The position numbers and the translations under genes are program-made. Shown piece after piece: positions 6,161 to 58,191 of a stretch of 64,000 nt of DNA. The stretch's first letter is position 1. Every line of letters begins with the position of its first letter. Below the pieces are notes generated by a model. That model saw nothing but the letters and a program-made list of their open reading frames with translations. It was not told the origin of the DNA and did not search any database. Location of the stretch: IMG/VR virus record IMGVR_UViG_2721755711_000002. One strand, written 5' to 3'. The stretch is from a virus (lineage: Duplodnaviria; Heunggongvirae; Uroviricota; Caudoviricetes).

Positions 6161-6397
6161 TCAGTCAGTATTTCTGGCTAACCAGCGACGCGCGCCAGCT
6201 TCGGTTTTAAACGTTTTGCTTTTGGTATACGTCATCGCGGTGAACGTACCGTCCTGGTTTGGAAACACGCCGTATACCAGAGATTCGTTGTTGCCAAGAT
6301 CGATAGTATCCATGCTGACCTCATTTCCCCTTAACGCCGGGGTAGCGGAACAAAAACCTGCTGCATAGTTAAAGTTGAACCCTGCCGTCATGTTCAT
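6161..6397 (-). CDS. Small hypothetical protein, first gene of leftward early operon
   Basis: 78-aa ORF immediately downstream of operator-like palindromes; stop abuts next gene. Confidence 0.45.
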   Translation of the reverse strand: MNMTAGFNFNYAAGFCSATPALRGNEVSMDTIDLGNNESLVYGVFPNQDGTFTAMTYTKSKTFKTEAGARRWLARNTD

Positions 6398-6495
6398 ACG
6401 CCTCGGGCTGGCTACTTAACCCCTGACCACAGCCTGGTAACTCGAAGTATTGCCCTGCGTTCTGTGGGGCGGAGTGGGTTGGCATGAAAGGAAGG

Positions 6496-35030: not shown

Positions 35031-35922
35031 TCAGGCTGCCAGATCATCGTTTCCGATGGAAGCATAATAAGCTTTTTCTGCTTCTGCCGGTGGGATATGG
35101 CCCAGCCTTTCCAGCAATCGTCGATTGTTATACCAGTCCACCCACGTGAGTGTGGACAGCTCCACTTCTGTCCGGTTTTTCCAGCGCTTACGGTGTATTA
35201 CCTCCGCTTTGTAAAGGCCATTGATGCTTCTCCGCCATCGCGTTGTCATACGAGTCACCAGTACTCCCTGTTGATGCCAGTAAGCCGGCTTCCTTAAGCC
35301 GCTGCGTGTAGGCCAGCGATACATACTGAGAACCTTTATCACTGTGGTGGATTGTGCCGGACGGCCGACGGGCCCACAACGCCTGCTCCAGTGCATCCAG
35401 CACGAATGCCGTTTCCATGGATGATGAGACCCGCCATCCCACGATGTATCCGGCGAACACATCAATGATGAACGCCACATAAACGAAGCCCTGCCATGTG
35501 TTTACCCAGGTAAAATCAGCCACCCACAACTGGTCAGGACGTTCTGCCACGAACTGACGGTTTACGCGGTCGCATGCGGCAACGGCTTTCCGGCTGACGG
35601 TAGTGCGGACCTTTTTACCCCGGAGAACACCGGCAAGTCCCATAACCGCCATGAGACGTGCCACAGTGCATCTGGCCACTCTGATACCTTCCCGTAACAA
35701 CTGACGCCAGACTTTACGCACACCGTATACCTGGTGATTTTCATCGTATACGCGCTGTATCTCTTTCTTCAGCCAGTCATCGCGCTGCGCACGGGCACTG
35801 CGTTTATCAGGATGATGTCGCTGTTGCTGACAGTGGTAATACGTTGACGGGGCAATATGCAGTTCGCTGCATACCGGTCCGACCCCGTACTGCTCACGCA
35901 GCTTATCCAGCAGTGGCATCAT
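35031..35922 (-). pseudogene. IS629 transposase orfB interrupted by a 1-nt insertion frameshift
   Basis: ORF pieces 35188-35922 and 35031-35480 are in different frames; extra base in GAGAAGC (plus-strand ~35227-35231) breaks the expected DNAMAESINGLYKAEV. Confidence 0.7.
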
Positions 35923-36245
35923 TTTTTCCAGAGGCGGTCGAACTCCGCCTTCGCAAAATAAGCGGAAGCCTGGCGAAGGATATCGTTACTGCGGCGCAGT
36001 TCACGATTTTCACGTTCCAGCTCTTTCAGACGCTGACGTTCAGCGGTGGTGAGCCCACCATCACCGCCCCCGGTATCCCGCTCATGCTGGCGAACCCAGA
36101 CACGCAGAGTCTCCGGCGTACAGCCAATTTTTGGGGCAATGGAACAAATTGCCGCCCACTGTGAATCATACTCATCCTGACTTTCCAGAACCATACGAAT
36201 CGCTCGCTGACGGACTTCGGGGGAAAAACGAGTATTTTTAGTCAT
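35919..36245 (-). CDS. IS629 transposase OrfA (HTH)
   Basis: 108-aa [24 protein letters not shown]... with leucine-zipper-like C-terminus. Confidence 0.85.
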
Positions 36246-46886: not shown

Positions 46887-47172
46887 GTGGATGCCTCAGT
46901 AACGAAAGGATTTTTGACAAATTCCCGTGCGCCCACACGATAAGCGCACAGAAAACCAGATTCAGCGCCACAACCAGCCAGCTGGAGTGCGTGTATGTAC
47001 CGGACAGCCAGCGGAACGGGATGATGATGTAGCCGAGCATCAGCCAGTACGCCAGCCAGGTAATCATCGGTTTATGCGCCGCACCGTGGCGGCGATACAC
47101 AAACAACCCCAGCACAATGGCGAGGCACAGCCAGACGTTCACGATACCGGCAAGGCTACTTTCCATTTCCAC
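46870..47172 (-). CDS. Lysis-associated multi-pass membrane protein (holin/antiholin candidate)
   Basis: 100-aa ORF with hydrophobic helices between holin-like gene and endolysin. Confidence 0.45.
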   Translation of the reverse strand: MEMESSLAGIVNVWLCLAIVLGLFVYRRHGAAHKPMITWLAYWLMLGYIIIPFRWLSGTYTHSSWLVVALNLVFCALIVWAHGNLSKILSLLRHPHEIKR

Positions 47173-47548
47173 CCCCTCCGCCGCGCAGTCTGGAAAACAG
47201 GCCGAACAGCGATGAAATTTCCTGTTGATAAAGAAAAGTCAGTATCTTGATGGATAAAGCAGAGACACCGACCGCACACAATGCATCGAGCGGTTTGTCG
47301 TTATAGTGGGTCAGCCACTGCATCAGTGACGCAGCCACGCCAGCCCCCAGAACGCCAACCACAAACGCGACGAGCAGGTGAATAGCCATTCGCCATACCG
47401 GGATTTCTTTCTGCTGAGTGACAACAAAAAGCGCCCCGGCAAACGCGCCCACCACGACCCCGAAATCGGTATTGGTGAGAAGGCCAAACACACTGGCACC
47501 ACCGATGGTGACTGCCACAGCTCCGCCGCCTGATAAGGGTTCAGACAT
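47156..47548 (-). CDS. Holin-like membrane protein
   Basis: 131-aa ORF, Gly/Ala-rich helices; homologue of the truncated gene at 17956; upstream region also similar. Confidence 0.5.
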   Translation of the reverse strand: MSEPLSGGGAVAVTIGGASVFGLLTNTDFGVVVGAFAGALFVVTQQKEIPVWRMAIHLLVAFVVGVLGAGVAASLMQWLTHYNDKPLDALCAVGVSALSIKILTFLYQQEISSLFGLFSRLRGGGGGNGK

Positions 47549-47730
47549 GAGTTTCTCCTGTAAATCTGAGCCACTGACGGCCCGTAAATAACACCCTGTC
47601 AAAGGCACAAAAGCCTTTTGCAGGGCGCTATCCCTTAAGGTGCCTTGTGGTCTGAGTGGACAGGGTAAACGGTCTGGTGTGGTGGGTACTGCTGGGGGAG
47701 TTCAGCACCCCGCGGCGGCGGGGTGATAAA

Positions 47731-48009
47731 TCAGAAGCGGGAAAGAGAATCCGGCGTAATAAGAGGTTTATTACAAAGCGGAGCAGAGGCGTTCGCCTTT
47801 TCCATCGCTGCGCGCATCTCGTTTTCGCTGGCGATGATGTCAGCAATGGCACACTGCAACGCTTCTTCCTGAACAACCATATCCGGTTGTTCGGCCATTC
47901 GGTTTAACTGACTGGCCAAATTTTTCATATAAGCAAAGCGACGTCCGGCAGCATCCCGGGCCTGCTCTGAGTAGGCCGTATACTCGCCAAGTGCCATATA
48001 GTTGGTCAT
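47731..48009 (-). CDS. Hypothetical protein
   Basis: ~92-aa ORF between Mor and lysis genes. Confidence 0.4.
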   Translation of the reverse strand: MTNYMALGEYTAYSEQARDAAGRRFAYMKNLASQLNRMAEQPDMVVQEEALQCAIADIIASENEMRAAMEKANASAPLCNKPLITPDSLSRF

Positions 48010-48035
48010 AAGTGTCTCCTTTTTTCTGAGGCCCA

Positions 48036-48503
48036 TTAATCAAAAAGCCCCACCTGAGTGGGGCTTTTCAGCGAAGTCTGTTTTTGTCGTCGGTGTATCA
48101 GCTGCCATGCGTACCGGTCTGAAATGCCGTAACGGGGACAGAGCAGTGCCAGCGCCTGCCGGTGTGAGCATCCGTCTTTTACATGCTGCTGTAAATCAGC
48201 CATAAAACGGGTGTTACGCAGGGCACGTAATGCATGATCGCAACGGGGAATGTAAAACGGAGCACCGCCAAGAAAGCGGATCAGTTTGTTGATTTCGTCT
48301 TCGGTCAGCACATCATGTAACAGGGCATGGACACCGCCGGTTCGTTCGGCGTGTGCGCCGGTTTTACCGCTTAACGTCACGCCACCAAAAGAACGGATTA
48401 ACCGGGTCAGGGCGGGGAAGCCAATCACGCTAATCAGTTGCTGCACGGAATCAGGCAACAGTGCCTGCGCATCGCGAAGATCTGTTTCACTGAAGGTCTG
48501 CAT
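48036..48503 (-). CDS. mor: Mor-family transcriptional activator (middle operon regulator)
   Basis: 155-aa ORF; C-terminal HTH region resembles Mu Mor/C family; conserved position before lysis and late genes. Confidence 0.7.
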   Translation of the reverse strand: MQTFSETDLRDAQALLPDSVQQLISVIGFPALTRLIRSFGGVTLSGKTGAHAERTGGVHALLHDVLTEDEINKLIRFLGGAPFYIPRCDHALRALRNTRFMADLQQHVKDGCSHRQALALLCPRYGISDRYAWQLIHRRQKQTSLKSPTQVGLFD

Positions 48504-48598
48504 GATGGCGTCTCCGGTAGTAACTTACTGTTATTATAGCCATACATGATCGCCTGTACAGACCACAAAAAAGCCCCTGCAAGGCAGAGGCTGATTCT

Positions 48599-49012
48599 TT
48601 ATTGTTTACGTGCTGCTCTGGCTCGTTTTCTGGCGTCTTTTGTCAGCGCCACCATCACCCCGAACAGTTGATCATCTGTCAGCCATTCGATCACATGTTG
48701 CTTATACATGTGAGATGCCAGTCCTTCCGCATACGCCCAGGAACGACCGGCATCAGCCAGCAACGCTTCAATTTTGGATAATACTGATTTTCTGCTCATT
48801 GCAACACGGGGGCGGCGACCTTTACCGGCGGGTGCCTTGCGCGGAAATCCCTGTTCGTGCATGTATTCCCGGATGATGCGCAGTTCATCAAGATTGCAAC
48901 GTGTGGTGCTGGTTTTACCTGTCAGGCGGGCCAGTGTCTGGCGATAAAGGGCATCATCCCACCCCAGATACGCCTGACCGGCTTTAATGGCCCCGATCAT
49001 CTTTTTCAGCAT
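48599..49012 (-). CDS. Mu gp16/GemA-like protein
   Basis: ~137-aa ORF immediately upstream of mor. Confidence 0.5.
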   Translation of the reverse strand: MLKKMIGAIKAGQAYLGWDDALYRQTLARLTGKTSTTRCNLDELRIIREYMHEQGFPRKAPAGKGRRPRVAMSRKSVLSKIEALLADAGRSWAYAEGLASHMYKQHVIEWLTDDQLFGVMVALTKDARKRARAARKQ

Positions 49013-49262
49013 GTTTGTTATCCTCAAAACGCACGGTAAAACGTGAAACGCCAATCCCCGACAGGAACGCGGCGGCACGGTCAAGAGACAGCCACGTCTT
49101 GTAATCGCCACGGCGTTCCTGTAGAAAATAGGACACCCCGGCGCGGCGATTCACAGCGAAGAGGTGATACACACCACCGAACCGCTGCACGACGAACTCA
49201 TCCACGCCACCGCTTTCAGCCTGTTGCCTGAAAGCTGCCATTCCGATTTGTTCAATCTTCAT
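48984..49262 (-). CDS. Hypothetical early protein
   Basis: ~92-aa ORF overlapping the gp16-like gene start. Confidence 0.4.
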   Translation of the reverse strand: MKIEQIGMAAFRQQAESGGVDEFVVQRFGGVYHLFAVNRRAGVSYFLQERRGDYKTWLSLDRAAAFLSGIGVSRFTVRFEDNKHAEKDDRGH

Positions 49263-49516
49263 AATGACCAAAACATCACTTTTGGCAGACCAAAACATAT
49301 GTTTTGGTCTGCTGTTGGTTATTATTTAATTACTTTGCGTTAGTGTGATTCTTCCAGCGATTTTGGGCTGCGCTGGGCTTGTTAAGGGAACACATCACAA
49401 TATCAGCTGTGTTTGTGAACAAACCCATTCTGCGGTTACTGAGTTTTAGCCATTGCTGGACGCCGCGAGCGTTTCTACAGGTCAAAAGAATTTTTGCTTT
49501 ACGGTTTTTCATCTGA

Positions 49517-49825
49517 TTATTCTCCTGAAATCAGTCCTGAACGGATTACTGTTTTTGCAATATGCGCCCGTAATTGCTGCGTTCCGTGGTATTTGATTGC
49601 CACATCGCGTAATTTATTAACCAGCTCCCTGAGCTGATGCTCTTTTGCTCCCGGTGTCACCGGAATGATTCCTGCTCTCCGGTATTCCTGAAGCTCCAGC
49701 AGGGACTGCCGTAAGAGCGTCCACCACTCTCTGTCTACAATCGGCCCGCGCATATCAAGCATTTTGTCAGCATCGGCAATCAGTCTGGTCAGGCCCTTAT
49801 CGCTTATTCTGGTTTGCTGGTTCAC
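49517..49825 (-). CDS. Hypothetical early protein
   Basis: 102-aa ORF. Confidence 0.4.
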   Translation of the reverse strand: MNQQTRISDKGLTRLIADADKMLDMRGPIVDREWWTLLRQSLLELQEYRRAGIIPVTPGAKEHQLRELVNKLRDVAIKYHGTQQLRAHIAKTVIRSGLISGE

Positions 49826-50112
49826 TGCGCCGCCTCCTGTTCATTTTTTTCACTCCGGTATACCAAAATCACGACATCACCTACGGGGATAACGCGGGTT
49901 GGTTCTCCCGGCTCTATGCTGTCGATATCGAAGGCCTCAAAGAACTCATTCATCGCCTTCTGCTGCTGCGTCTGTTTACGGTGCTTATTCCATGTTTTCA
50001 GGAATACAAGGGACAGCCACATCCCGGCGCGGAGCATGATGTAACACCAACCGAGAAGAGCGATGCCTGCATTCATGGCTACATCTATCGTTATCGTTTT
50101 ATCAATGACCAT
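49822..50112 (-). CDS. Small membrane protein
   Basis: 96-aa ORF with hydrophobic segment. Confidence 0.4.
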   Translation of the reverse strand: MVIDKTITIDVAMNAGIALLGWCYIMLRAGMWLSLVFLKTWNKHRKQTQQQKAMNEFFEAFDIDSIEPGEPTRVIPVGDVVILVYRSEKNEQEAAQ

Positions 50113-50332
50113 TGCCAGCCTCCTGTTTTGCCACTTTAAACGCCCGTAACATCGGAACCGTTTTACCGGTGATGACGGTTTTCATTAAAAGGCCACCGCC
50201 ACTCTGATGGCGCACTTCAGGTGCCACAAACAACGCCGCATCCACAACCCGGTTATAGCGGCGAAACTCCCAGAGCCAGCAGGTAACAATGATTTTTGCT
50301 TTAGTCCCATAGTTATAAAATTCAATATTCAT
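50102..50332 (-). CDS. Hypothetical early protein
   Basis: 76-aa ORF, overlapping neighbours. Confidence 0.35.
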   Translation of the reverse strand: MNIEFYNYGTKAKIIVTCWLWEFRRYNRVVDAALFVAPEVRHQSGGGLLMKTVITGKTVPMLRAFKVAKQEAGNGH

Positions 50333-50556
50333 TTGCAGTTAAACCTTCTTTTGTGACGTTCTACAGCGGCTTTCATGGCGTTGTGCACGGTTCTTTTAAT
50401 AATCCGGCGTCCCGCACTGTCATAGAACCGCCACCGGGAAGCCCCCGGATATCCGGGGAACTCAACCACCGCGCTACCGTCATTCATCCTGTATTCGTGG
50501 CGTTCTCCGGGCGGCTGGTATATTGCTTCGGTAACACTGAGAAGTTTAAAAGCCAT
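50329..50556 (-). CDS. Hypothetical early protein
   Basis: 75-aa ORF. Confidence 0.35.
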   Translation of the reverse strand: MAFKLLSVTEAIYQPPGERHEYRMNDGSAVVEFPGYPGASRWRFYDSAGRRIIKRTVHNAMKAAVERHKRRFNCK

Positions 50557-50558
50557 CG

Positions 50559-51269
50559 TTACACCCTCCCCAGTGCCAGCGGTCTGTTGCTCTGACCATT
50601 AACCCCCTGATGCAGTCTGGCGTTTTTCCCGGCGATAAAACCGGCTGTAGCGGCAAACTCTGCACCCCGGCACGCTTTAGCTGTGCGCATATCCCCGTTG
50701 CGCAGCCCCTTAGTGCTGTGCAGGTTCTTTCTGTAAAGCTCAAGGCGGCTTTTTTCTTCCGGGGAGACGTCATACACCGCAATGACATCACGGGCACCAA
50801 AGACCCAGCCTTCGCAGAACTGGTCGCCACGGGCTACCCGCGTGGACGGACCACAACGTTTGCAGTGTTTATCCTGATATTTTTTACGTTCAGCCATCAT
50901 CTGACGGGAAAGCACATCAAACGCGTATGCCGCAATTTCCGGGCGGCTGTCAGGACCATAAAAACGAACGTAACGTTTGAGTGAACCAGAAGCCCGGTAT
51001 TCGCCGGATATGTAACACTCGACACCGAAGGCTTTACAGACCAGGTCACACAGGATGTGCATATAACGCGGCGGTGTACTGGCATCACTCGGCGCACCCG
51101 CGCTGGCAGCTTCCTGAATGTCGAACAATTCCGCGTCGTTTTCGCTGATGCCATGCTGGCGCATATAAGCCTGGGCTTTTGCAATAGCGTTAGCGGCTTC
51201 TTCCGGGCTTGATGTTCCTCTGGCAAGGCGTAACAGTTTTTTGATTTTGGCAATGTATTTATCTTTCAT
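50559..51269 (-). CDS. DUF2786-like protein with Cys-rich C-terminal domain
   Basis: 236-aa ORF starting MKDKYIAKIKKLLRLA. Confidence 0.55.
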   Translation of the reverse strand: MKDKYIAKIKKLLRLARGTSSPEEAANAIAKAQAYMRQHGISENDAELFDIQEAASAGAPSDASTPPRYMHILCDLVCKAFGVECYISGEYRASGSLKRYVRFYGPDSRPEIAAYAFDVLSRQMMAERKKYQDKHCKRCGPSTRVARGDQFCEGWVFGARDVIAVYDVSPEEKSRLELYRKNLHSTKGLRNGDMRTAKACRGAEFAATAGFIAGKNARLHQGVNGQSNRPLALGRV

Positions 51270-51282
51270 GGTCGTCTGAACC

Positions 51283-51465
51283 TCAGCATCCTGAATTCTG
51301 AATTACGCAACTTCCGGCACGGCCTTCAGGAACGTGGGGAGTTCGTTCTGGCTGCGGTACTGAATGAACATCTGCTGTCGATTGAGAACTGGTCGCAAGA
51401 CGATTAAAACAAACGATTGTCAGATTAATTTCGCGGGCGAACTTTTTTTGCTTAGCGATATTCAT
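51283..51465 (-). CDS. Small hypothetical protein
   Basis: 60-aa ORF directly downstream of hairpin element A with GAGAGAG site. Confidence 0.3.
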   Translation of the reverse strand: MNIAKQKKFAREINLTIVCFNRLATSSQSTADVHSVPQPERTPHVPEGRAGSCVIQNSGC

Positions 51466-51475
51466 AAATAAACTC

Positions 51476-51540
51476 TCTCTGATTCAGGCGTAAGCCAGCC
51501 CCGGCGGGTTTACGCCATATACAAATAAAATTAAAAACAG
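51476..51540 (-). repeat. Intergenic hairpin element, copy A
   Basis: Nearly identical to 52551-52612; hairpin GGCGTAA(N16)TTACGCC next to TTAATTTT-rich stretch and ribosome-binding site. Confidence 0.6.
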
Positions 51541-51545
51541 ACTTA

Positions 51546-52097
51546 TTAACTACGACGTTCAGTTTTCCGGTAATGGCGGTCAACAGATTTAACGAACGCC
51601 TTCACATCACGGGAAATCGAATCCAGCGGATAATATTTATCCAGCAGTTCCATTCCGCTGAATCGAATCTGAAAAAAATCAGGCTTATCTTTATATGACT
51701 CCATCAGGTCAATAAACCGCAGCTGACGCGGGAGGGATTCCTGCACGCCTGAAATAGTGAGCAAATCATCTTCAAGGATATATGCGAGGTCTTCCATATC
51801 CTTACAGTCAGACATCATGGATATTCTTGTCAGTATGTTCCGTGTGGCGATATACAGCGCGGCTGTGTCATTCGCCATCATGGCGAACAAATCCCCCTGA
51901 ATATAAGCCCCCTTACTGGCCATAGCATTCCCGGCAATCTGCGCATCAAGTACCACATACATAAAATCGCCAGGTGCACCCAGATGGCCCAGCAATGATG
52001 ACGCCCATAACGTTACATTGGTTAACTTCCCAGATGAACGGACAGCAAAACCTTCAGGAGTAACAATAAATTCCCAGACTTTATCTTTCATATACAA
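51546..52097 (-). CDS. Hypothetical protein
   Basis: 183-aa ORF bracketed by the two hairpin elements. Confidence 0.5.
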   Translation of the reverse strand: MYMKDKVWEFIVTPEGFAVRSSGKLTNVTLWASSLLGHLGAPGDFMYVVLDAQIAGNAMASKGAYIQGDLFAMMANDTAALYIATRNILTRISMMSDCKDMEDLAYILEDDLLTISGVQESLPRQLRFIDLMESYKDKPDFFQIRFSGMELLDKYYPLDSISRDVKAFVKSVDRHYRKTERRS

Positions 52098-52155
52098 ATC
52101 CCCTTAATTCAGGCGCAGACCTGTTTACCTGCGCCATAAAAAAACGAAGTCAGAG

Positions 52156-52548
52156 TTAAAAATCGAAGACGTCAGTTAATTCCCGCTTCAGTGAAACGCA
52201 CTCAGAATAAAAGCCCTCGCTCTCACCGCACCATCTGACGACTACACAGCCTTTTGATGTGCCGAACTTAAAGAAACTCCATGTCTGATGACCTTCCCCA
52301 ACATCACATTCTTCGGTAACCACTTCAGCCTCTGTCAGCGGTTCATCTTTCAGGTCGTCAAGGTCTCCGACGATGTCCTCAATCCAGACTTTTTCGCAGC
52401 CTTCCTGAAAGTGGAAAAATGTAAACACGGTTCCCCATACTCCCCGGGAATAATCACCACGAAAAACAAGTTCATCGTTTTCATTCTTAACTACTTCTTT
52501 AAATGTACGCCCGAGCATTTCATTGATAACGGTAACACTCATTTTCAT
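52156..52548 (-). CDS. Hypothetical acidic protein
   Basis: 130-aa ORF; GGAG site directly after hairpin element B. Confidence 0.5.
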   Translation of the reverse strand: MKMSVTVINEMLGRTFKEVVKNENDELVFRGDYSRGVWGTVFTFFHFQEGCEKVWIEDIVGDLDDLKDEPLTEAEVVTEECDVGEGHQTWSFFKFGTSKGCVVVRWCGESEGFYSECVSLKRELTDVFDF

Positions 52549-52550
52549 TT

Positions 52551-52612
52551 CTCCAGATTCAGGCGTAAGTCAGCCCCGGCTGGTTTACGCCTGTTTTAAA
52601 TAACAATTAAAA
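52551..52612 (-). repeat. Intergenic hairpin element, copy B
   Basis: GATTCAGGCGTAAGTCAGCCCCGGCTGGTTTACGCC plus ATTAAAAACA, matching copy A. Confidence 0.6.
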
Positions 52613-52622
52613 ACAAATTAAA

Positions 52623-52814
52623 TTAATGCGGTGCTTTCAGTGTTTCGACTTTTACGAAATAAGGCTCGACATTAATTTCAACCACACAACCACATTTAAA
52701 ATCTCTGGCAGGTGAAACGGTTTTCACCACACGACCACCACGCAACGCCGGATGTGCAGTGTGCATGAAGCGAGTCCCTACCGGATACTGCTTATTAAAG
52801 TTCTTCGCATTCAT
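52623..52814 (-). CDS. Small hypothetical protein
   Basis: 63-aa ORF. Confidence 0.35.
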   Translation of the reverse strand: MNAKNFNKQYPVGTRFMHTAHPALRGGRVVKTVSPARDFKCGCVVEINVEPYFVKVETLKAPH

Positions 52815-53028
52815 GGCGTGGCCTCCAGCCCTTCAGGTGAGCGTTAGCGCAGAACTCCGCACGATGTTCAGCCCAGATGCGGCGCAGGGTGCTACACGGG
52901 CTTTGTGCTGCCTTACGCCACAGCTTTTCAGCCTCGGCATAATCACCGCGCTGTTCAGCTCTTGACGCTCCCAGTGAATACGCCGCGCAACGGTTCCCGG
53001 CTCTGTACTCTTTGATATCCTGATGCAT
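52795..53028 (-). CDS. Small helical protein, possibly ANR-like (AraC negative regulator family)
   Basis: ~77-aa ORF; AEQRGDYAEAEKLWRKAAQSPCSTLRRIWAEHRAEFC recalls ANR-family patterns from memory only. Confidence 0.3.
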   Translation of the reverse strand: MHQDIKEYRAGNRCAAYSLGASRAEQRGDYAEAEKLWRKAAQSPCSTLRRIWAEHRAEFCANAHLKGWRPRHECEEL

Positions 53029-53029
53029 G

Positions 53030-53674
53030 TTAAACCCCTGCAATATCAAGCGGGATTGCGCGATATTCGTCAGAATCGCCGACGCGCTCATACACACGAA
53101 TATAGCTCTTGCTGCCAATCACCTGGACGGCTTCACCAATCAGCGTCATTGCGTTATTCCAGCGTTCGTCCTCAATTTCAAGGCGACGCAAGGCCAGAAC
53201 GCGCCCGGTGTTAATGTTGCCTTCCTTGTCCGTGCTGAATGCCTCGCTGATGATGGCTTTGATTTCAGGGCGTGCACCTTCCGTCCAGTCAGCCAGGCAA
53301 TCATCAATCAGCGACTTCGCGGTCTGAATGCGTTCATCAAACGCGATACGGTCCTGCATGGCGCGCTGAATCTTGTAACGCCCGTCAAAGCTGTAAAGCG
53401 TGATATTGCCTTTTTTGCCACCTTTCACTGCGCCGTATTTCTCCGCCGACAGGTCAATAAACGCCTGAATATCACCAAAGGCACGTAGTTTCAGTTCACG
53501 CAGTGAGGCGGAGGCAGCAATCACCAGTTCCACAATCTCACCGACCAGCTGCTCGCGGTCGCGGTCAATATCTTTGATAAGGCTTTCAGGTGTCATTACG
53601 CCACGGGCATCCACCCAGTAACCTTCAGGCGCTTGAGTTTTCGTGTATTGCTTAACTTTATTTTCAGTCGTCAT
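53030..53674 (-). CDS. Hypothetical early protein (DUF3164-like)
   Basis: 214-aa ORF in Mu-like early region. Confidence 0.45.
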   Translation of the reverse strand: MTTENKVKQYTKTQAPEGYWVDARGVMTPESLIKDIDRDREQLVGEIVELVIAASASLRELKLRAFGDIQAFIDLSAEKYGAVKGGKKGNITLYSFDGRYKIQRAMQDRIAFDERIQTAKSLIDDCLADWTEGARPEIKAIISEAFSTDKEGNINTGRVLALRRLEIEDERWNNAMTLIGEAVQVIGSKSYIRVYERVGDSDEYRAIPLDIAGV

Positions 53675-53703
53675 AATTAAATTACCTCAGTGATATTTAC
53701 AGA

Positions 53704-53919
53704 TTAATTTGTGTTATGTGCGCGAGGCGCAACGTTTTCAGAAAAAATATTCACGCCGTTGTAGTCATTTCTCAGTGCTTCCTTGATAACATCATGTAAT
53801 CCTGTTGCCACCTGAAGCTCCCTTTTGGAAGCGCCATCCTTCGAATAACTCCCTGTAATCCGGGTAAAAGTCGCGCCTTTTTCATTGGTATAGATAATTA
53901 CTTCTAATTTAACCGCCAT
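53704..53919 (-). CDS. Hypothetical early protein
   Basis: 71-aa ORF. Confidence 0.4.
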   Translation of the reverse strand: MAVKLEVIIYTNEKGATFTRITGSYSKDGASKRELQVATGLHDVIKEALRNDYNGVNIFSENVAPRAHNTN

Positions 53920-53931
53920 TCTGATTTCCTC

Positions 53932-54171
53932 TCATTGCCATACGACGGTGCAGCCGTCGATACAGGATGTTTTCACCACGCGGCGCAGGCCGCTGAATGT
54001 CTGGATGATTTCCGTTACCGGCCATACAGGACCACCCACAGGCGGGCAGGCATAAACCACAGGTAAACGGTGATGTTGCCCCGTTACACGACCGCCGGTG
54101 GTGTGGATGGCCACACGGGCACGGGAACGGACGGCATTAATGGTCTGCTTTTCCATCATTTTGTTCTCCAT
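53932..54171 (-). CDS. Hypothetical early protein
   Basis: 79-aa ORF just downstream of B. Confidence 0.4.
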   Translation of the reverse strand: MENKMMEKQTINAVRSRARVAIHTTGGRVTGQHHRLPVVYACPPVGGPVWPVTEIIQTFSGLRRVVKTSCIDGCTVVWQ

Positions 54172-55064
54172 CAGTGAATTAACATTTCTGAATATTTATC
54201 AATGGCCTGCACACTGACCGGTGCATCGCTGATATCACAAATCCGGTACACACCACGCGCCAGCTTGAACAGACGACGGGCATTACCCAGCGAACGTGTG
54301 TAAAGTGCCTCACCAATTTCCGGGTCCGCCGCTTCCGGCATCATGTCTGTGGCAATCTTGTTAAAATCTTCCTGCGTCAGCGTATCGCCCAGGTTAAGCG
54401 CCAGCGCCACGCGGCTGTATAATTGAGCGAACTCACCACAACGGCCCTTAAGGTTAATCAGAAGGTGAGGCATACCCGCCAGGACAATCCCGATACCCGC
54501 TTTGTCATGCAGACGGCGCAATACCTCCAGTGCACGATAGGGGAGCAGTTCAGCCTCATCCACCATCAGCAGACGACCTGACCCACGCAGTTCACGCACA
54601 CAGGCATCAATCTTCTCGCGAATATCGCCGTGAACCTTTATGCCCAACTGGCGGCACAGTTCATCGAGTAACTTTCTGGCCGTATAGCCAATATCGGCTT
54701 CAATGAGCACTACATCCCGGTTTCTGGCGGCATATTCACTCAGAATCATGCTTTTACCCAGGCCCGCCGCGCCATACAGAACGCAAATATCACACTCCAG
54801 ATGGGCGTAGGTCAGTACTTCCAGCCCTTTGGCAGCCATGCCGGTGGTGACAAATCGCACTTTAATACGGCGGTTGTTTTCCTTTTCCCATTCACGGGTC
54901 ACAAAGGCAGAAATGCGTTCTTCAATATCAGCCATATCGCCCTGATATTTGCCCTGCAAATACTGGTTGATAACAGCGCTGCTACGACCAATAGCACGGG
55001 CAACGTGGGTCTGCGTAAAGCCGCGACGGGCCATTACGTCATTTAATTGCGTAATTAAACTCAT
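54171..55064 (-). CDS. B: DNA transposition protein B (AAA+ ATPase, Mu B-like)
   Basis: 297-aa ORF with N-terminal HTH and Walker A GAAGLGKS; follows transposase A. Confidence 0.85.
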   Translation of the reverse strand: MSLITQLNDVMARRGFTQTHVARAIGRSSAVINQYLQGKYQGDMADIEERISAFVTREWEKENNRRIKVRFVTTGMAAKGLEVLTYAHLECDICVLYGAAGLGKSMILSEYAARNRDVVLIEADIGYTARKLLDELCRQLGIKVHGDIREKIDACVRELRGSGRLLMVDEAELLPYRALEVLRRLHDKAGIGIVLAGMPHLLINLKGRCGEFAQLYSRVALALNLGDTLTQEDFNKIATDMMPEAADPEIGEALYTRSLGNARRLFKLARGVYRICDISDAPVSVQAIDKYSEMLIH

Positions 55065-55082
55065 AATTAAATACCTTTTAAA

Positions 55083-57125
55083 TTAACGATTATTTGTGCC
55101 GTTTTTCTTTAAATTGCGCTCACGGTCAGACACGAATAAATAAAGTTCTTCTTTTTCCTTTTTCTCCTGGCGTTCCAGTCCATATCCCAGATTAAACTCA
55201 GGTTTCTGCGTAATAGCCGGGGTAAGTTCGCGTTTAGCCTCTTCGATTTTCTGCGTGGCCCGTGCAATGCGGCCTCGGGCGCGTTTCTCCTGCTGCTGTT
55301 CGATAACGGCTTTCGGGAACGCATCGACCTTGTTACCGTTCCAGATGGCATCGCAGATATAAGAACCGTCCATTCGCCTGACAATCACGCTGTTTGCGTC
55401 GTGAATGTCGTAACAAACCCTGACTTCATTTCCGTGCTCTGCTGCCAGTTCTGTGGAGAAATAGATGTTTCTGAATAACACCACTTCACCGCGTCGCACC
55501 GTGCAGATGCTTTCCGGTCGGAACATTTCATGCAGTTCTTCCGGCGACAGCATGTCGATTTCAGCCTTTTGCTCTTTTATCAGTTTCCGGCGATACGCTG
55601 CCGGGCTGTAATGTTCGCCATCCTCTTTGCGGGGAAGGCTGCTGTGTGGTCGGTTGTTATACCGTTTCACCTCCAGCTCTATTGCGGCCAGCAGTTGCTC
55701 AAAGGTGGGGACTTCTCCCATCGCTTTAACCTGCCGTTTTGTCAGCTCTTTCCCTTTGTGGGTGGCCTTAATGGCTGACTGTGTGATGCGTTGCTGCATC
55801 ATCACCGTTTCCTTGTCTGCATTTTTTGAGCAGTACGTCTGGAAACTCAGGGCCACATCTTTGGGTATTCCTTTGTTTGCCCGTTCTATTACCCCGCGCC
55901 CCTGCGGGTTACCAGGTATCCCCGTGTGATGCTCCACACCCAGTCGGGGCAGAATCCCGGTAATATCGGCATCAAGCACCCGGTTTTTTTCACCGCCCCC
56001 GTTATCGGAGTAATAAATCAGCGGTATTCCGTGTTGTGACATGCCATGACGCAATGCATCAGCAACGGCTATCACGTTCTCCGACAGGGACAGCGACCAG
56101 CCCACAATAAAGCGTTGCCCCGCATCCATAACCAGCGTCACTTCTGGCCGGAATGTATTCCCGGTGGCGGGGCTGAATGCCATCAGTTTCATACAGTGAC
56201 CATCCCCGACCCATACCGCATTAACCGGTAATGTGCTCCAGTCGCGCCGCACAAAGGGATTGAGCGAACGCCAGGCTGAACCGGTGGAGCGGAAACGCTC
56301 CTTCACAATCACCGGGACGTTGCTTAACACCCGTCTTACTGCGTGAACTGAAGGCAGTGCTGCCAGCATTCCTGCGTCATTCGCGTGCTTTTCATGCCAC
56401 CAGGCTGAAAACTCGCGATACGCATATTCAACGGTCGGGCGCTTCCATGAGCGATAGAACATAAAGAAATCGCTCAACCACCAGACCTGCTCCCACGGTG
56501 TTCCCTTATGATGACCGGGAGCCAGTAACGCCAGTAACTGATTGGCATCACCGCGCGCCATCAACCAGGCGGAATACCATTCCTGCAAACTTCCCCAACT
56601 GACGCCAGTTCGCTTACCCTGTCTGGCGTTTGCAGTGCCTGCGGCCTCAATAATGCGGTCAGGTAACGCCCCCATGCGCACACCATCAATGATGTGTTTT
56701 ACTGCTGCCGTCCTGGACATTCCTGCGTATTCACGCAGTTTATGCACTTCGGTAGCCAGCAATATCCGCGCATCAGCGATGGCCTTTTGCTTGTCGGTCA
56801 GTGCCTGAACTTCGCGTAATGCCAGTTCCGGGCATTTGACCATCACTTCCAGTTCATCGCGAACGGTGACGTTTTTAACTGCCTTCTGCTCAACCACGGC
56901 GGGCAGTTGCGCATCTTCCAGAACCTGATGAGTCAGGCGCTTACGTAAAACTTTCTGCGCTTCAGTGGGCAGGCAGTCGATGTGATACTCGAATGCTTTG
57001 GTGCCTTCACGCTTGCGCTTCCATTCCGGGTGCGTCTCTGTGATCCGATTGAGCGTCCAGCGCACCCCCTGAACTGTACCGGGCAAACCAGGAAGACCGG
57101 CCAGCTCATTGGCTGAATAAAACAT
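55083..57125 (-). CDS. A: Mu-type DDE transposase A
   Basis: 680-aa ORF; N-terminus ANELAGLPGLPGT resembles MuA; ner-A-B order. Confidence 0.9.
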   Translation of the reverse strand: MFYSANELAGLPGLPGTVQGVRWTLNRITETHPEWKRKREGTKAFEYHIDCLPTEAQKVLRKRLTHQVLEDAQLPAVVEQKAVKNVTVRDELEVMVKCPELALREVQALTDKQKAIADARILLATEVHKLREYAGMSRTAAVKHIIDGVRMGALPDRIIEAAGTANARQGKRTGVSWGSLQEWYSAWLMARGDANQLLALLAPGHHKGTPWEQVWWLSDFFMFYRSWKRPTVEYAYREFSAWWHEKHANDAGMLAALPSVHAVRRVLSNVPVIVKERFRSTGSAWRSLNPFVRRDWSTLPVNAVWVGDGHCMKLMAFSPATGNTFRPEVTLVMDAGQRFIVGWSLSLSENVIAVADALRHGMSQHGIPLIYYSDNGGGEKNRVLDADITGILPRLGVEHHTGIPGNPQGRGVIERANKGIPKDVALSFQTYCSKNADKETVMMQQRITQSAIKATHKGKELTKRQVKAMGEVPTFEQLLAAIELEVKRYNNRPHSSLPRKEDGEHYSPAAYRRKLIKEQKAEIDMLSPEELHEMFRPESICTVRRGEVVLFRNIYFSTELAAEHGNEVRVCYDIHDANSVIVRRMDGSYICDAIWNGNKVDAFPKAVIEQQQEKRARGRIARATQKIEEAKRELTPAITQKPEFNLGYGLERQEKKEKEELYLFVSDRERNLKKNGTNNR

Positions 57126-57361
57126 TACGCCGCCTTACTGGCATACCGGCTTGGCCAGATCTCCGCAGGTTCCACACCAATAGCATCGGCTATGATGCGT
57201 TCATATTTAGGGCATGAGCGATACAGTGCATTTTTTAAAGAGTCTTTTTTTAGACCAGCGCGTTCAGAAAGTTCACGCAATGTAAAACCTTTGGTGTGCA
57301 CAGCGGCAACGATGTACTCGCGGTGCCAGTCTTTGTTCATTACTTCATTTCTAACCATCAT
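57125..57361 (-). CDS. ner: Ner-like DNA-binding regulator
   Basis: ~79-aa ORF with DWHREY and IWPSRY motifs shared with Mu Ner/Nlp. Confidence 0.8.
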   Translation of the reverse strand: MMVRNEVMNKDWHREYIVAAVHTKGFTLRELSERAGLKKDSLKNALYRSCPKYERIIADAIGVEPAEIWPSRYASKAA

Positions 57362-57543
57362 TAGGTTACCCTTAAAAGTTATCCGTGCGGATAACACCGC
57401 CGTGTTATCCCTTCGGATATAAGTATTGATCCATATGTAACCCATGTAAAGCAAAAATAGCCTTTTCTTTGTATTTTCTTTTTGCTTTTGGTCTTTATAT
57501 GGTTTTGTGATTGAAAATCAATTGGTTAAATAGGAAAGGAAAA
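57362..57543. promoter_or_regulatory. Divergent c/ner operator-promoter region
   Basis: AT-rich intergenic region with repeated CTTTT motifs between divergent ner and c genes. Confidence 0.4.
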
Positions 57544-58191
57544 ATGACAAAAAATGATGACGCTTTTTCTTTAGTTGACCGAGGAAAAGAAAGTTTTAGA
57601 GAGCGTTTAGTAAAACTAATAGGTGGGCGCAGTGTCAGAACTGCCGCGAGCGACTGGGGTATCCCTCCTTCAACCTTAAACAACTACATCCATAAAGGAA
57701 CAGAACCCTCTTTTAAAATAGCCTGCCTTATCTCAGATAAAGAGCGGGTGAGTTTAAATTGGCTCGCTTATGGTGAGGAACTCACCGCCACAGCAAACTC
57801 TTTATCAAACCAAACAGCGCAGCCTTCTCCCGATATTACAAACGAGCTAGCTAACGAGTTATTGAAAAGAGCGTCCACAGAAGATAAAGAACTATTGATA
57901 AATGCAATATGTGATATGGGTATCAAAGGAATCCTAAAACGTCTGCAACAACCCACTAGGCAAGCGAAACAAGCCGCTAACACGCTGGAGGAGCAAGAGA
58001 ATGCTATCCAAAGTCTGAATATCAGGAAATCACTTAAGGATGCAATCCGAGTAGCATTACATGGAAACGAAGATACTGACAGAGAGATTTTGCGAATTGT
58101 TGAATCTCATATACGACCACAATCGCCGGGTGATCAGACCGATGTCACACCGGAGCAAGAAACAAAATCTGTAAGTAAAAAATCAGCATGA
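57544..58191 (+). CDS. c: Mu-type repressor c
   Basis: 216-aa ORF divergent from ner with AGGAAAGGA site; N-terminal DNA-binding-like region. Confidence 0.7.
   Translation: MTKNDDAFSLVDRGKESFRERLVKLIGGRSVRTAASDWGIPPSTLNNYIHKGTEPSFKIACLISDKERVSLNWLAYGEELTATANSLSNQTAQPSPDITNELANELLKRASTEDKELLINAICDMGIKGILKRLQQPTRQAKQAANTLEEQENAIQSLNIRKSLKDAIRVALHGNEDTDREILRIVESHIRPQSPGDQTDVTPEQETKSVSKKSA

Follow-up and report, generated by a model that had tools for sequence, protein, structure and literature searches.

The window, which is the whole 64-kb stretch of DNA that was analysed, contains the early operon of a Mu-like prophage, and the sense strand of this operon is the minus strand. In the direction of reading, the minus-strand genes at the locus are a 63-aa gene (52623-52814; phrog_5591, no assigned function), a DUF7448 gene (52156-52548; the start annotated in relatives corresponds to 52542 here), a 181-aa gene (51546-52091; phrog_7741, no assigned function), a 60-aa ORF (51283-51465), and a gene encoding DUF2786 and DUF7168 (50559-51269). 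The 63-aa gene was found in every E. coli-type relative compared, while the DUF7448 gene and the 181-aa gene are accessory cassettes that are variably present among close relatives. Of recombination enzymes, the Mu transposase and its ATPase are annotated in the vicinity. The initial annotation described a repeated hairpin element placed before two small genes. The positions hold, but the gene after one of the copies is doubtful: the 60-aa ORF overlaps what remains of the 3′ part (51283-51407, plus strand) of a 72-aa gene, which relatives have in intact form, and the synonymous and non-synonymous counts favour neither frame.

The repeat itself was confirmed. A repeat finder returned a single family in the window, consisting of two 57-nt copies (51481-51537 and 52556-52612) with 82% identity and 1075 nt spacing. 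The pattern GGCGTAA-N16-TTACGCC occurs exactly twice in the 64 kb (51487-51516 and 52562-52591), while 0.21 matches are expected from shuffles and none of 100 shuffles had at least two. These hairpins are parts of two larger modules on the minus strand, at 52549-52622 (copy 2, in the gap between the 63-aa gene, which is the final gene ahead of the first module, and the DUF7448 gene) and at 51466-51545 (copy 1, between the 181-aa gene and the 60-aa ORF). A third, diverged copy, which is also matched by a covariance model, lies between the other two, at 52098-52155 on the same strand (copy 3, between the DUF7448 gene and the 181-aa gene). With the genes on the minus strand, the parts of the element come in the order leader, hairpin, UGAAU, Shine-Dalgarno (SD) sequence, and AUG. 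In each copy, a stop codon precedes the A/U-rich leader.

Copy 2 has its leader at 52594-52622, the hairpin GGCGUAA ACCAGCCGGGGCUGAC UUACGCC at 52562-52591 (a CA/UG pairing can extend the stem to 52560-52593), UGAAU at 52557-52561, and the SD sequence GGAGA at 52550-52554; the covariance model matches 52550-52605 (68.8 bits, E = 1.9e-15). Copy 1 has its leader at 51517-51545, the hairpin GGCGUAA ACCCGCCGGGGCUGGC UUACGCC at 51487-51516, which is the commonest variant of E. coli prophages, UGAAU at 51482-51486, and a purine-rich SD sequence at 51473-51480 (model match 51475-51530; 69.9 bits, E = 8.7e-16). The stem-loops of these two copies are 30 nt long, GGCGUAA-N16-UUACGCC, and differ at 2 positions. 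Copy 3 has a U-rich leader, the hairpin GGCGCAG GUAAACAGGU CUGCGCC with an N10 loop at 52112-52135, UGAAU at 52107-52111, and the SD sequence AAGGGG (model match 52100-52149; 43.1 bits, E = 5e-8). The A/T-rich stretch, the lack of a U-tract on the gene strand, and the site just before the ribosome-binding site were all described correctly in the initial annotation.

In general, the module is about 75-95 nt long and intercistronic in the early-operon mRNA. The A/U-rich leader (27-41 nt) usually ends in UUUAAAWAU and is followed by a G+C-rich stem-loop. In this stem-loop, the basal stem has 5-7 bp (GGCG.../...CGCC), the upper part is irregular, and the apex, C(A/C)GG(G/A)G, is purine-rich. A short A/U spacer, UGAAU or AAAUU, then leads to the SD sequence. 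The AUG lies 16-28 nt after the stem, and the distance peaks at 18-21 nt irrespective of the gene. The apical loop is SD-like, and reads CAGGAG in Mu. A two-codon mini-ORF, AUG-GCG-UAA, is frequent at the stem foot, although neither the main E. coli copy nor type D has it.

The module is a conserved, covarying RNA hairpin on the sense strand. Practically all alignment cells have the basal stem paired, in four combinations: UAA/UUA, CGA/UCG (Muvirus), UGA/UCA (Pantoea), and CAG/CUG (copy 3 of the window). Double-sided stem changes were counted in 33 cells, compared with 11.3 ± 2.4 in shuffles, and none of 500 shuffles reached 33. Stem cells are paired in 89.5% of cases, as against 17-43% when the partner is slid, and RNAalifold predicted the basal stem independently. 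In the upper stem, the pairing is poorly conserved, and columns 24/39 and 25/38 are often unpaired. The covariance-model E-values for the copies range from 1e-8 to 1e-17, and all real copies (matches above 32 bits) sit on the sense strand of the operon. The modelled pairs include 9 G.U cells and only 2 A.C cells, and the basal stem adds two independent G.U pairs. In context, the window hairpins fold at -19 to -23 kcal/mol, with z-scores of -1.2 to -5.8 that vary with copy and strand. The commonest E. coli variant has a better fold on the antisense strand (-18.2 kcal/mol) than on the sense strand (-13.9 kcal/mol). As regards the strand of action, the folding energies are thus inconsistent across variants, and only the G.U counts lean to the sense strand.

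Is the module common in other Mu-like genomes? A set of loci was collected via the DUF3164 protein, comprising 26 from Enterobacterales and 54 from other Proteobacteria. The covariance model found the hairpin in 24 of the 26 Enterobacterales loci and in none of the 54 others. The related genomes carry it on the sense strand, 16-28 nt ahead of start codons, and in several relatives, for example L007, it is directly upstream of the DUF2786 + DUF7168 gene. Phage Mu itself has the hairpin in the gam-gp11 gap (44.2 bits), and the Mu-like context proposed from the sequence was right. Other carriers are SfMu, a Yersinia Mu-like phage, a Mu-like insert, and Klebsiella phage Kp4852-3. A DNA search of the GenBank phages with the E. 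coli variant gave no real match; Mu was detected by the covariance model only. Among E. coli genomes, the element was found in 58 of 5426, at 88 places (one to four per genome), and the inspected places are all within the early regions of Mu-like prophages. The module matches no Rfam family: with Rfam 15, no family came up to its gathering score in the window, in 11 Enterobacterales loci, or in Mu, and a weak match to Lnt RNA is noise (26.7 bits, with a gathering score of 55). A full-text literature search with the hairpin sequence gave no match (the ribozyme-discovery papers PMC4509812 and PMC3867598 are outside its scope), and nothing relevant was found in the literature on Mu early-transcript processing.

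The module is located at the start of, and within, a variable block of accessory genes. In close relatives, the flanks are 90-100% identical, while the DUF7448 gene, the 181-aa gene, and/or the 60-aa region are missing in nearly all combinations. The break points of gene presence and absence fall inside the hairpins. The junction sequences revealed that the leader travels with the upstream gene and the SD region with the downstream gene; one relative (L002) carries a chimeric hairpin variant. When Mu is compared with SfMu or the Yersinia phages, the homology ends right after the hairpin. Since the relatives differ in the genes between the copies, the hairpins are recombination joints, and the suggestion that such joints bracket a swapped gene was demonstrated directly by this comparison. 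Thus, the near-identical 30-35-bp hairpin is a site of gain, loss, and exchange of accessory genes between related phages.

A precedent is the PeSL (promoter-early stem-loop) cassettes of T4-type phages, which are also short, conserved, intergenic stem-loop cassettes repeated around non-essential genes in variable regions, and insertions, deletions, and replacements occur by crossover at these cassettes (PMC2839356; PMC4122927). The module shares the defining arrangement of stem-loop repeats that flank variable genes, with indels ending in the motif. However, a PeSL cassette carries a strong sigma-70 early promoter and a terminating stem-loop, while the module has neither a promoter-like site nor a sense-strand U-tract, lies inside one long operon, and carries the SD sequence of the next gene. 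The promoter scan found no promoter-like site in 51466-51545, 52098-52155, or 52549-52622.

What occupies these junctions outside Enterobacterales? In relatives from other Proteobacteria, these junctions were found to have type II hammerhead ribozymes, arranged in the same way. The type II hammerhead pattern was present on the sense strand in 31 of the 54 non-Enterobacterales loci and in none of the 26 Enterobacterales loci. Of 11 loci tested, 9 gave a match to Hammerhead_II (RF02276) at 58-81 bits, where the gathering score is 37. Ten loci have two hammerhead copies, most of them 452-1167 nt apart, and stem I is a median of 22 nt away from the start codon. Orthologues of DUF2786 + DUF7168, as in Pseudomonas and Chromobacterium relatives, and of GemA have a hammerhead immediately before them. 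The remaining 23 of the 54 relatives have neither hammerhead nor hairpin; thus, such an element is not obligatory. Neither the window nor any of 11 Enterobacterales loci had a hammerhead at gathering score, none appeared at E-values up to 5 over 47000-58000 of the window, and a permissive scan (E up to 1) of the Mu and SfMu early regions gave no hammerhead and nothing relevant. A possible hammerhead relic was dismissed, as CCUGAAUCAG resembles CACUGAUGAGCAG too slightly for homology.

In prophages, hammerheads are known on either side of single genes, the identity of which varies, and this implies the processing of long phage transcripts (PMC3088659). The strongest gene associations of hammerhead and twister ribozymes are with Mu-like phage genes, for a reason that is unexplained (PMC10085705; PMC6765202). 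The hairpin shares this intercistronic, sense-strand niche flanking single genes in Mu-like early operons. Both elements occur in the same operon and at the same junctions, such as upstream of DUF2786/DUF7168, in one to three copies around single genes of varying identity; both fill an intergenic length of about 65-95 nt, and both have a stable hairpin that ends about 20 nt before the AUG. In contrast to the hammerhead, the hairpin has neither the CUGANGA / GAAA / UH core nor a three-way junction, and any cleavage of it would require a host enzyme or unknown chemistry. The taxonomic distributions of the two are complementary.

Since hammerheads sit at the same junctions in 31 of the 54 relatives and the hairpin in none, the hairpin may take the place of the ribozyme as a site of mRNA processing or punctuation. 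Of the readings in the initial annotation, RNA processing thus gains strong indirect support, from the covarying sense-strand hairpin and from the hammerheads at the orthologous junctions. The best explanation, to which I give a probability of about 55%, is that the module is the enterobacterial counterpart of the hammerheads and may, by analogy of position, punctuate or process the early mRNA. The cut by a host endonuclease would fall in the unstructured A/U leader or at the hairpin base, and the downstream cistron would then begin with a stem-loop that is just outside the ribosome-binding site. The shape of this product would equal that of the hammerhead product: a stem-I hairpin, about 22 nt, and the AUG. 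The long early transcript might thereby be divided into segments of separate stability and translation. Hairpins that process or stabilise mRNA include the RNase III sites of the T7 early region, the RNase E sites by stem-loops in T4 gene 32 and papBA, and REP stabilisers. They combine an untranslated A/U-rich stretch with a stable stem-loop between cistrons, and segmental stability is the expected outcome. The module is likewise an A/U-rich stretch plus a stem-loop between cistrons of a long transcript. However, its hairpin is short for an RNase III site (about 12-13 irregular base pairs), and, as against REP stabilisers, it is not dispersed in the host. Also against the explanation are the poorly conserved pairing of the upper stem, the better antisense fold of the commonest E. 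coli variant, and the 23 relatives with neither element. In addition, the stem and the 5′ half of the loop are conserved in primary sequence beyond the needs of a mere structural barrier, which points to a specific binding partner.

This conservation also bears on a possible but unlikely alternative, in which the module is an operator that a specific phage or host factor binds as RNA or DNA. This protein would read GGCG..CGYCAGGGG..CGCC and control the translation of the next gene, or a boxA-like U-rich leader and the hairpin would act in nut-like antitermination. The stem and the 5′ loop are near-invariant from Photorhabdus to E. coli, while the neighbouring DUF3164 protein is only 66-78% identical, and the SD-like apical loop and the site of the module just outside the ribosome-binding site would suit such an operator. 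As in the lambdoid nut sites (boxA + boxB), the nascent early transcript has a U-rich motif and then a small conserved hairpin, close to where a stretch that needs read-through begins. Some leaders are boxA-like, such as CUCUUUUAAAUAU in L078, judged by the boxA consensus. However, the E. coli copies are only weakly boxA-like, the boxA match is partial and not conserved, the loop and stem differ from boxB, and no N-like protein is known in Mu-like phages. Besides, no candidate protein co-varies with the module: the upstream gene is gam in Mu, and the other lineage has the 63-aa gene, the DUF3164 gene, or an ANR-family gene there. In copy 3 and the GGCGCUC-type variants, both half-sites and the loop length are altered but the hairpin is kept, and the hammerheads at the same junctions favour cleavage over binding. 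That the repeat is a pure recombination linker, kept for homology in the exchange of accessory genes and having no RNA function, is rather improbable. The indels and gene swaps that terminate in the hairpins, the near-identity of the copies within one phage, and the precedent of PeSL cassettes for repeats driving modular shuffling (PMC2839356) are what such a linker would predict. It would not predict compensatory changes that keep the stem paired in four combinations, G.U pairs that suit the sense strand only, a fixed orientation and start-codon distance, or cross-genus conservation greater than in the flanking genes; moreover, PeSLs are themselves functional promoter-terminator units.

There is only a slim chance that the module works on the plus strand, as an antisense terminator or insulator that shields the core early genes from transcription out of reverse-oriented inserts. 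The terminator scan flagged copy 2 only, on the antisense strand, where 15 pairs are followed by TTTTAAATAA and the fold reaches -23.3 kcal/mol (z = -5.8); in L002 and L005, the plus-strand 72-aa gene reads towards a copy. However, the plus strand of copies 1 and 3 has no T-run, the plus-strand tail across genera has just 0-5 T, most phages have no plus-strand gene at the site, and the G.U pairs favour the sense strand. It is equally doubtful that the hairpin is a new class of self-cleaving RNA replacing the hammerhead or twister ribozymes in enterobacterial Mu-like phages or, in a weaker form, a dedicated, sequence-specific substrate to which a host RNase is recruited. The niche and arrangement are those of the hammerheads, this niche has already been the source of three ribozyme classes (PMC10085705), and the stem and loop sequences are strongly conserved. 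On the other side, the conserved part is one irregular hairpin with A/U flanks and no evident pseudoknot or multi-stem junction, no known ribozyme family matches at E-values up to 5, and the hairpin is absent from the earlier surveys of the niche in the literature examined. An ordinary host repeat of the REP type or a chance palindrome can be practically dismissed. The hairpin is a G+C-rich extragenic palindrome that shares GGCGTAAAC with the REP consensus, but a REP would be expected in hundreds of copies dispersed over extragenic regions of the host chromosome, and the element occurs in 58 of 5426 E. coli genomes, at inspected places that are all Mu-like prophages, with 0.21 matches expected by chance; the outcome that the initial annotation named as refuting, an ordinary REP-type host repeat, did not occur.

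Several other readings were rejected. A sense-strand intrinsic terminator does not fit, as the stem is followed by UGAAUC... or AAAUUC... and by no U-tract. A -1 frameshift signal (UUUAAAU plus the hairpin) does not fit either; the slippery-like motif is past the stop codon and just 2 nt from the stem. The commonest variants have no GGA for a CsrA site, and a kissing-loop palindrome (CCGG) is found in one variant only. Integron attC sites have the core sites RYYYAAC ... GTTRRRY and are recombined by the IntI integrase; the arms GGCGTAA/TTACGCC are unfit for such core sites, and there is no integrase.

Returning to the hairpin as an enterobacterial counterpart of the hammerheads and as a crossover site, what do these results mean for Mu-like phages? 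What flanks the accessory genes of these phages was a point left open (PMC4378225). Here, the flanks are copies of the module with crossovers inside, which is the transposable-phage counterpart to the PeSL shuffling of T4-type phages. In practice, matches of the covariance model show where the accessory-gene block of such a prophage begins. The strongest tie of self-cleaving ribozymes in bacteria is to Mu-like phage genes, and this has been unexplained since 2011 (PMC3088659, PMC6765202, PMC10085705). Phage Mu and its enterobacterial relatives have a different conserved, covarying hairpin at the ribozyme junctions, with complementary distributions. Since the hairpin is present in Mu itself, the question becomes testable in the Mu / E. 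coli system. If the hairpin should prove to be a new self-cleaving class or a dedicated RNase substrate, the ribozyme niche of Mu-like phages would be open to experiment in its best-studied member.

The region is part of a transposable, Mu-like prophage, and the minus strand encodes its early operon. In the sense direction, transposase A (55083-57125) is followed by a MuB-like ATPase (54171-55064), small genes, DUF3164 (53030-53674), an ANR-family gene, a 63-aa gene (52623-52814), DUF7448 (52156-52548), a 181-aa gene (51546-52091), a 60-aa ORF (51283-51465), DUF2786+DUF7168 (50559-51269), and more genes as far as gemA and mor, all on the minus strand. These genes nearly all abut or overlap; only three gaps of any size interrupt them here, and each of the three holds a hairpin module. 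A repeat finder returned two 57-nt copies (51481-51537 and 52556-52612) with 82% identity, in agreement with the initial annotation, which had described a near-identical pair. The 7-bp stem GGCGTAA/TTACGCC around a 16-nt loop, also described there, was found twice in the 64 kb, against 0.21 occurrences expected from shuffles. On the gene strand, each copy consists of a stop codon, an A/U-rich leader, the hairpin, UGAAU, an SD, and AUG, so that the element indeed stands just ahead of a ribosome-binding site. A third copy lies between the two (52098-52155; 43.1 bits with a covariance model built later); its UGAAU-SD tail is that of the other copies, its stem is GGCGCAG/CUGCGCC, and its loop has 10 nt. 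No sigma-70-like promoter was found within the modules, and no Rfam family matched them even at E-values up to 5.

A plus-strand gene remnant (51283-51407), which overlaps the 60-aa minus-strand ORF, corresponds to the final 45 codons of a 72-aa gene (WP_000564495.1) and has no start codon; substitution counts favour neither frame. The 72-aa gene is intact in the relatives' loci L002 and L005, which have an extra 169 bp of DNA beside the DUF2786 start. A near-perfect 14-bp palindrome, TGGCAGACCAAAACATATGTTTTGGTCTGCTG, lies at 49283-49314 in the gap upstream of gemA, and its sequence is unlike the module. Between gemA and mor (48533-48592, minus strand), a hairpin that resembles a terminator and has a T-run (48592-48572) is directly followed by a promoter-like sequence, TGTACA-16-TATAAT (48560-48533). 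The early operon may end here, and mor or middle transcription may begin. At the gathering score, the only Rfam match in the window is the ALIL pseudoknot (RF01497) of an unrelated IS element (35848-35964, minus strand; 121.5 bits, gathering score 50). Since this pseudoknot is an IS3-family frameshift signal, an IS seems to lie within the prophage late region.

The module is a conserved, covarying sense-strand hairpin. In the pairing statistics on 46 sequences, the outer four base pairs of the basal stem are intact in all 46 and pairs 5-7 in nearly all, the latter occurring as UAA/UUA, CGA/UCG, UGA/UCA, and CAG/CUG. Two-sided changes occupy 33 cells; shuffles gave 11.3 ± 2.4, and none of 500 reached 33. 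Of all cells, 89.5% are paired, against 17-43% with slid partners. RNAalifold predicted the same basal stem. The upper stem is irregular and its pairing poorly conserved; conserved as sequence are the loop's 5′ half and its SD-like apex, C(A/C)GG(G/A)G. Such strong conservation of primary sequence is suggestive of a specific partner. From folding energies alone, the strands cannot be told apart. The sense-strand RNA is favoured because the modelled pairs include nine G.U and two A.C, the basal stem has two independent G.U pairs, and the orientation is fixed. The distance from the hairpin end to the start codon is 16-28 nt, with a peak at 18-21 nt, independently of the downstream gene.

In most copies, the 5′ foot of the stem reads (A/U)UG-GCG-UAA, a two-codon mini-ORF (e.g. 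51514-51522, minus strand; 7064-7119 of the relative's locus L086), which a compensatory stem change in Pantoea preserves as AUG-GCG-UGA. The mini-ORF is probably a coincidence, since type D lacks the start, as does the main E. coli copy (CAG). The variant C hairpin (e.g. locus L085, 7087-7116), GUAAACCGUCAGGGGACUGC, resembles GUAACCGUAGGGGAACCUGC of the 16S rRNA helix-45 region.

How widespread is the module? Scanning viral contigs for the pattern yielded about 59 real loci, which show five inner-sequence variants and served to build the covariance model R1; another scan, with the loop motif as its anchor, gave more than 100 further loci and additional stem variants. A sample independent of the hairpin sequence was formed by 80 loci fetched via the neighbouring DUF3164 protein. 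R1 matched 24 of its 26 Enterobacterales loci (Photorhabdus, Xenorhabdus, Yersinia, Serratia, Pantoea, Erwinia, Mixta, Lonsdalea, Kosakonia, Trabulsiella, Buttiauxella, Phytobacter, and Morganella), always on the sense strand and 60-500 nt past DUF3164, and none of the other 54. The initial annotation had proposed such a search of related Mu-like genomes for the element and the genes that it flanks. The module is present in Klebsiella phage Kp4852-3, D108, SfMu, Yersinia Mu-like phages, and the Mu-like insert of an Stx phage. Phage Mu itself has it in the 98-nt gam-gp11 gap (L156 3355-3410; about 6354-6409 of the Mu genome; R1 with filters off, 44.2 bits, E 1.9e-10), as GGCGCGA-UACGUCAGGAGAUUGC-UCGCGCC, then UGAAAC, GAGGAA, and AUG; the apical loop, CAGGAG, is a perfect SD-like motif. 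The homology of Mu to SfMu or the Yersinia phages stops just past the hairpin. Neither GenBank record of Mu has an annotation there, and the E. coli hairpin sequence had no match in the full-text literature searched. The module is restricted to Mu and Mu-like phages of Enterobacterales.

By R1, the module is absent from phage BcepMu. Its gap after DUF3164 (L155 4613-4675) has a G+C-rich hairpin unrelated to the module, CCGCGAG-CGU-CUCGCGG, and the next AUG follows about 21 nt later; therefore, some relatives with neither a hammerhead nor the Mu-type hairpin may use other stem-loops there.

In non-Enterobacterales relatives, hammerhead cores were seen in the same gaps. Rfam found type II hammerheads (RF02276) in nine of 11 loci at 58-81 bits (gathering score 37), all on the sense strand and with two copies in several loci, and one more among 11 further loci. 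Examples between early genes, all sense, are L115 (7645-7709 and 8382-8453), L109 (7568-7634 and 8723-8796), L146 (7011-7075 and 7463-7526), and L141 (6620-6685). The core pattern occurs in 31 of the 54 non-Enterobacterales loci (41 copies) and on the sense strand of none of the 26 Enterobacterales loci. At the gathering score, no Rfam family was found in 11 Enterobacterales loci, and a scan of the Mu and SfMu early regions with E up to 1 gave a chance snoRNA match only. The hosts of the prophages with hammerheads include Pseudomonas, Stutzerimonas, Bordetella, Vreelandella, Aquitalea, and Chromobacterium, often with pairs around one gene. Ten loci have two hammerheads, mostly 452-1167 nt apart, compared with 1075 nt in the window; therefore, they surround one gene as in the window. 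The end of stem I lies a median of 22 nt from the next start codon. Hammerheads stand immediately upstream of DUF2786+DUF7168 and GemA orthologues, and the module immediately upstream of DUF2786 in L007 and others. From the locus counts and junction comparison, hairpin and hammerhead exclude each other by host order and are equivalents in their position, strand, arrangement of copies, and spacing to the next gene. The hairpin module is thus positionally equivalent to hammerhead ribozymes. Prophage hammerhead clusters are known to flank single genes of non-constant identity, implying the processing of long phage transcripts (PMC3088659), and Mu-like phage genes show the strongest gene associations of hammerheads and twisters (PMC10085705).

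The module is placed at and within a block of accessory genes and is a crossover point for them. In close relatives, the flanking genes are 90-100% identical, while the genes between modules differ. DUF7448, the 181-aa gene, and the 60-aa region are all present in the window, L001, L002, L008, and L058; DUF7448 is missing from L003, L004, L016, L059, and L073, and both DUF7448 and the 181-aa gene from L005, L006, L012, L013, L039, and L063. The module immediately precedes DUF2786 in L007, L015, L019, and L061, and in L051 DUF7448 is followed directly by DUF2786. In each arrangement, the gene upstream keeps the A/U leader and the gene downstream keeps the SD region. Since the common part is only the hairpin (plus UGAAU), the crossovers fall within about 35 bp of near identity, as expected of the recombination joints bracketing a swapped gene that had been suggested earlier. 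The DUF7448 indel ends in a 9-nt repeat, CGCCUGAAU, common to two different hairpin types, and the L002 hairpin is a chimera of two variants. In L070 (348-1332, minus strand), a contig of 4.1 kb where an assembly artefact is possible, two successive genes follow two modules; the gene after the second has the SD and first eight codons (MYMKDKVW) of the 181-aa gene and then diverges completely. Therefore, the exchanged block can reach into the downstream gene start.

What does the module do? With a probability of about 0.55, the early mRNA is processed or punctuated at it. A host endonuclease would cut within the unstructured A/U leader or where the stem begins, leaving a 5′ hairpin that would insulate the downstream cistron or stabilise it. 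As a candidate nuclease site, the module resembles classical intercistronic processing sites. A hammerhead-cut downstream RNA begins with the stem-I hairpin, about 22 nt, and AUG, and the module has the same shape. The module would thus work like the hammerheads of Mu-like prophages, but it fails the test of their defining core. This placement would also suit a new self-cleaving RNA, a reading that is very improbable. A protein operator or nut-like site, to which the conserved stem and loop might lend themselves, is unlikely. A recombination linker with no RNA function would explain the crossovers and leaves the two-sided changes unexplained; it seems improbable.

Only copy 2 is terminator-like, and on the antisense strand; the sense strand has no U-tract 3′ of the stem, as the initial annotation had stated. 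An antisense terminator is as doubtful as self-cleavage. A sensitive BLAST search with the 70-nt element found it in 58 of 5426 complete E. coli genomes (88 places, one to four per genome), and every inspected place is within the early region of a Mu-like prophage. Thus, the REP-type host repeat that had been named as the refuting outcome did not occur. A REP repeat or chance palindrome can practically be dismissed. In its evolutionary behaviour, the module is like the PeSL cassettes of T4-type phages, but their promoter and terminator are both missing from it (PMC2839356).

No prior description of the module was found in Rfam 15, GenBank annotations, or the part of the literature covered. The ribozyme niche of Mu-like phages is extended to phage Mu itself, where it is open to testing, and an analysis of what flanks the accessory genes of Mu-like phages, which had been called for (PMC4378225), is now supplied.
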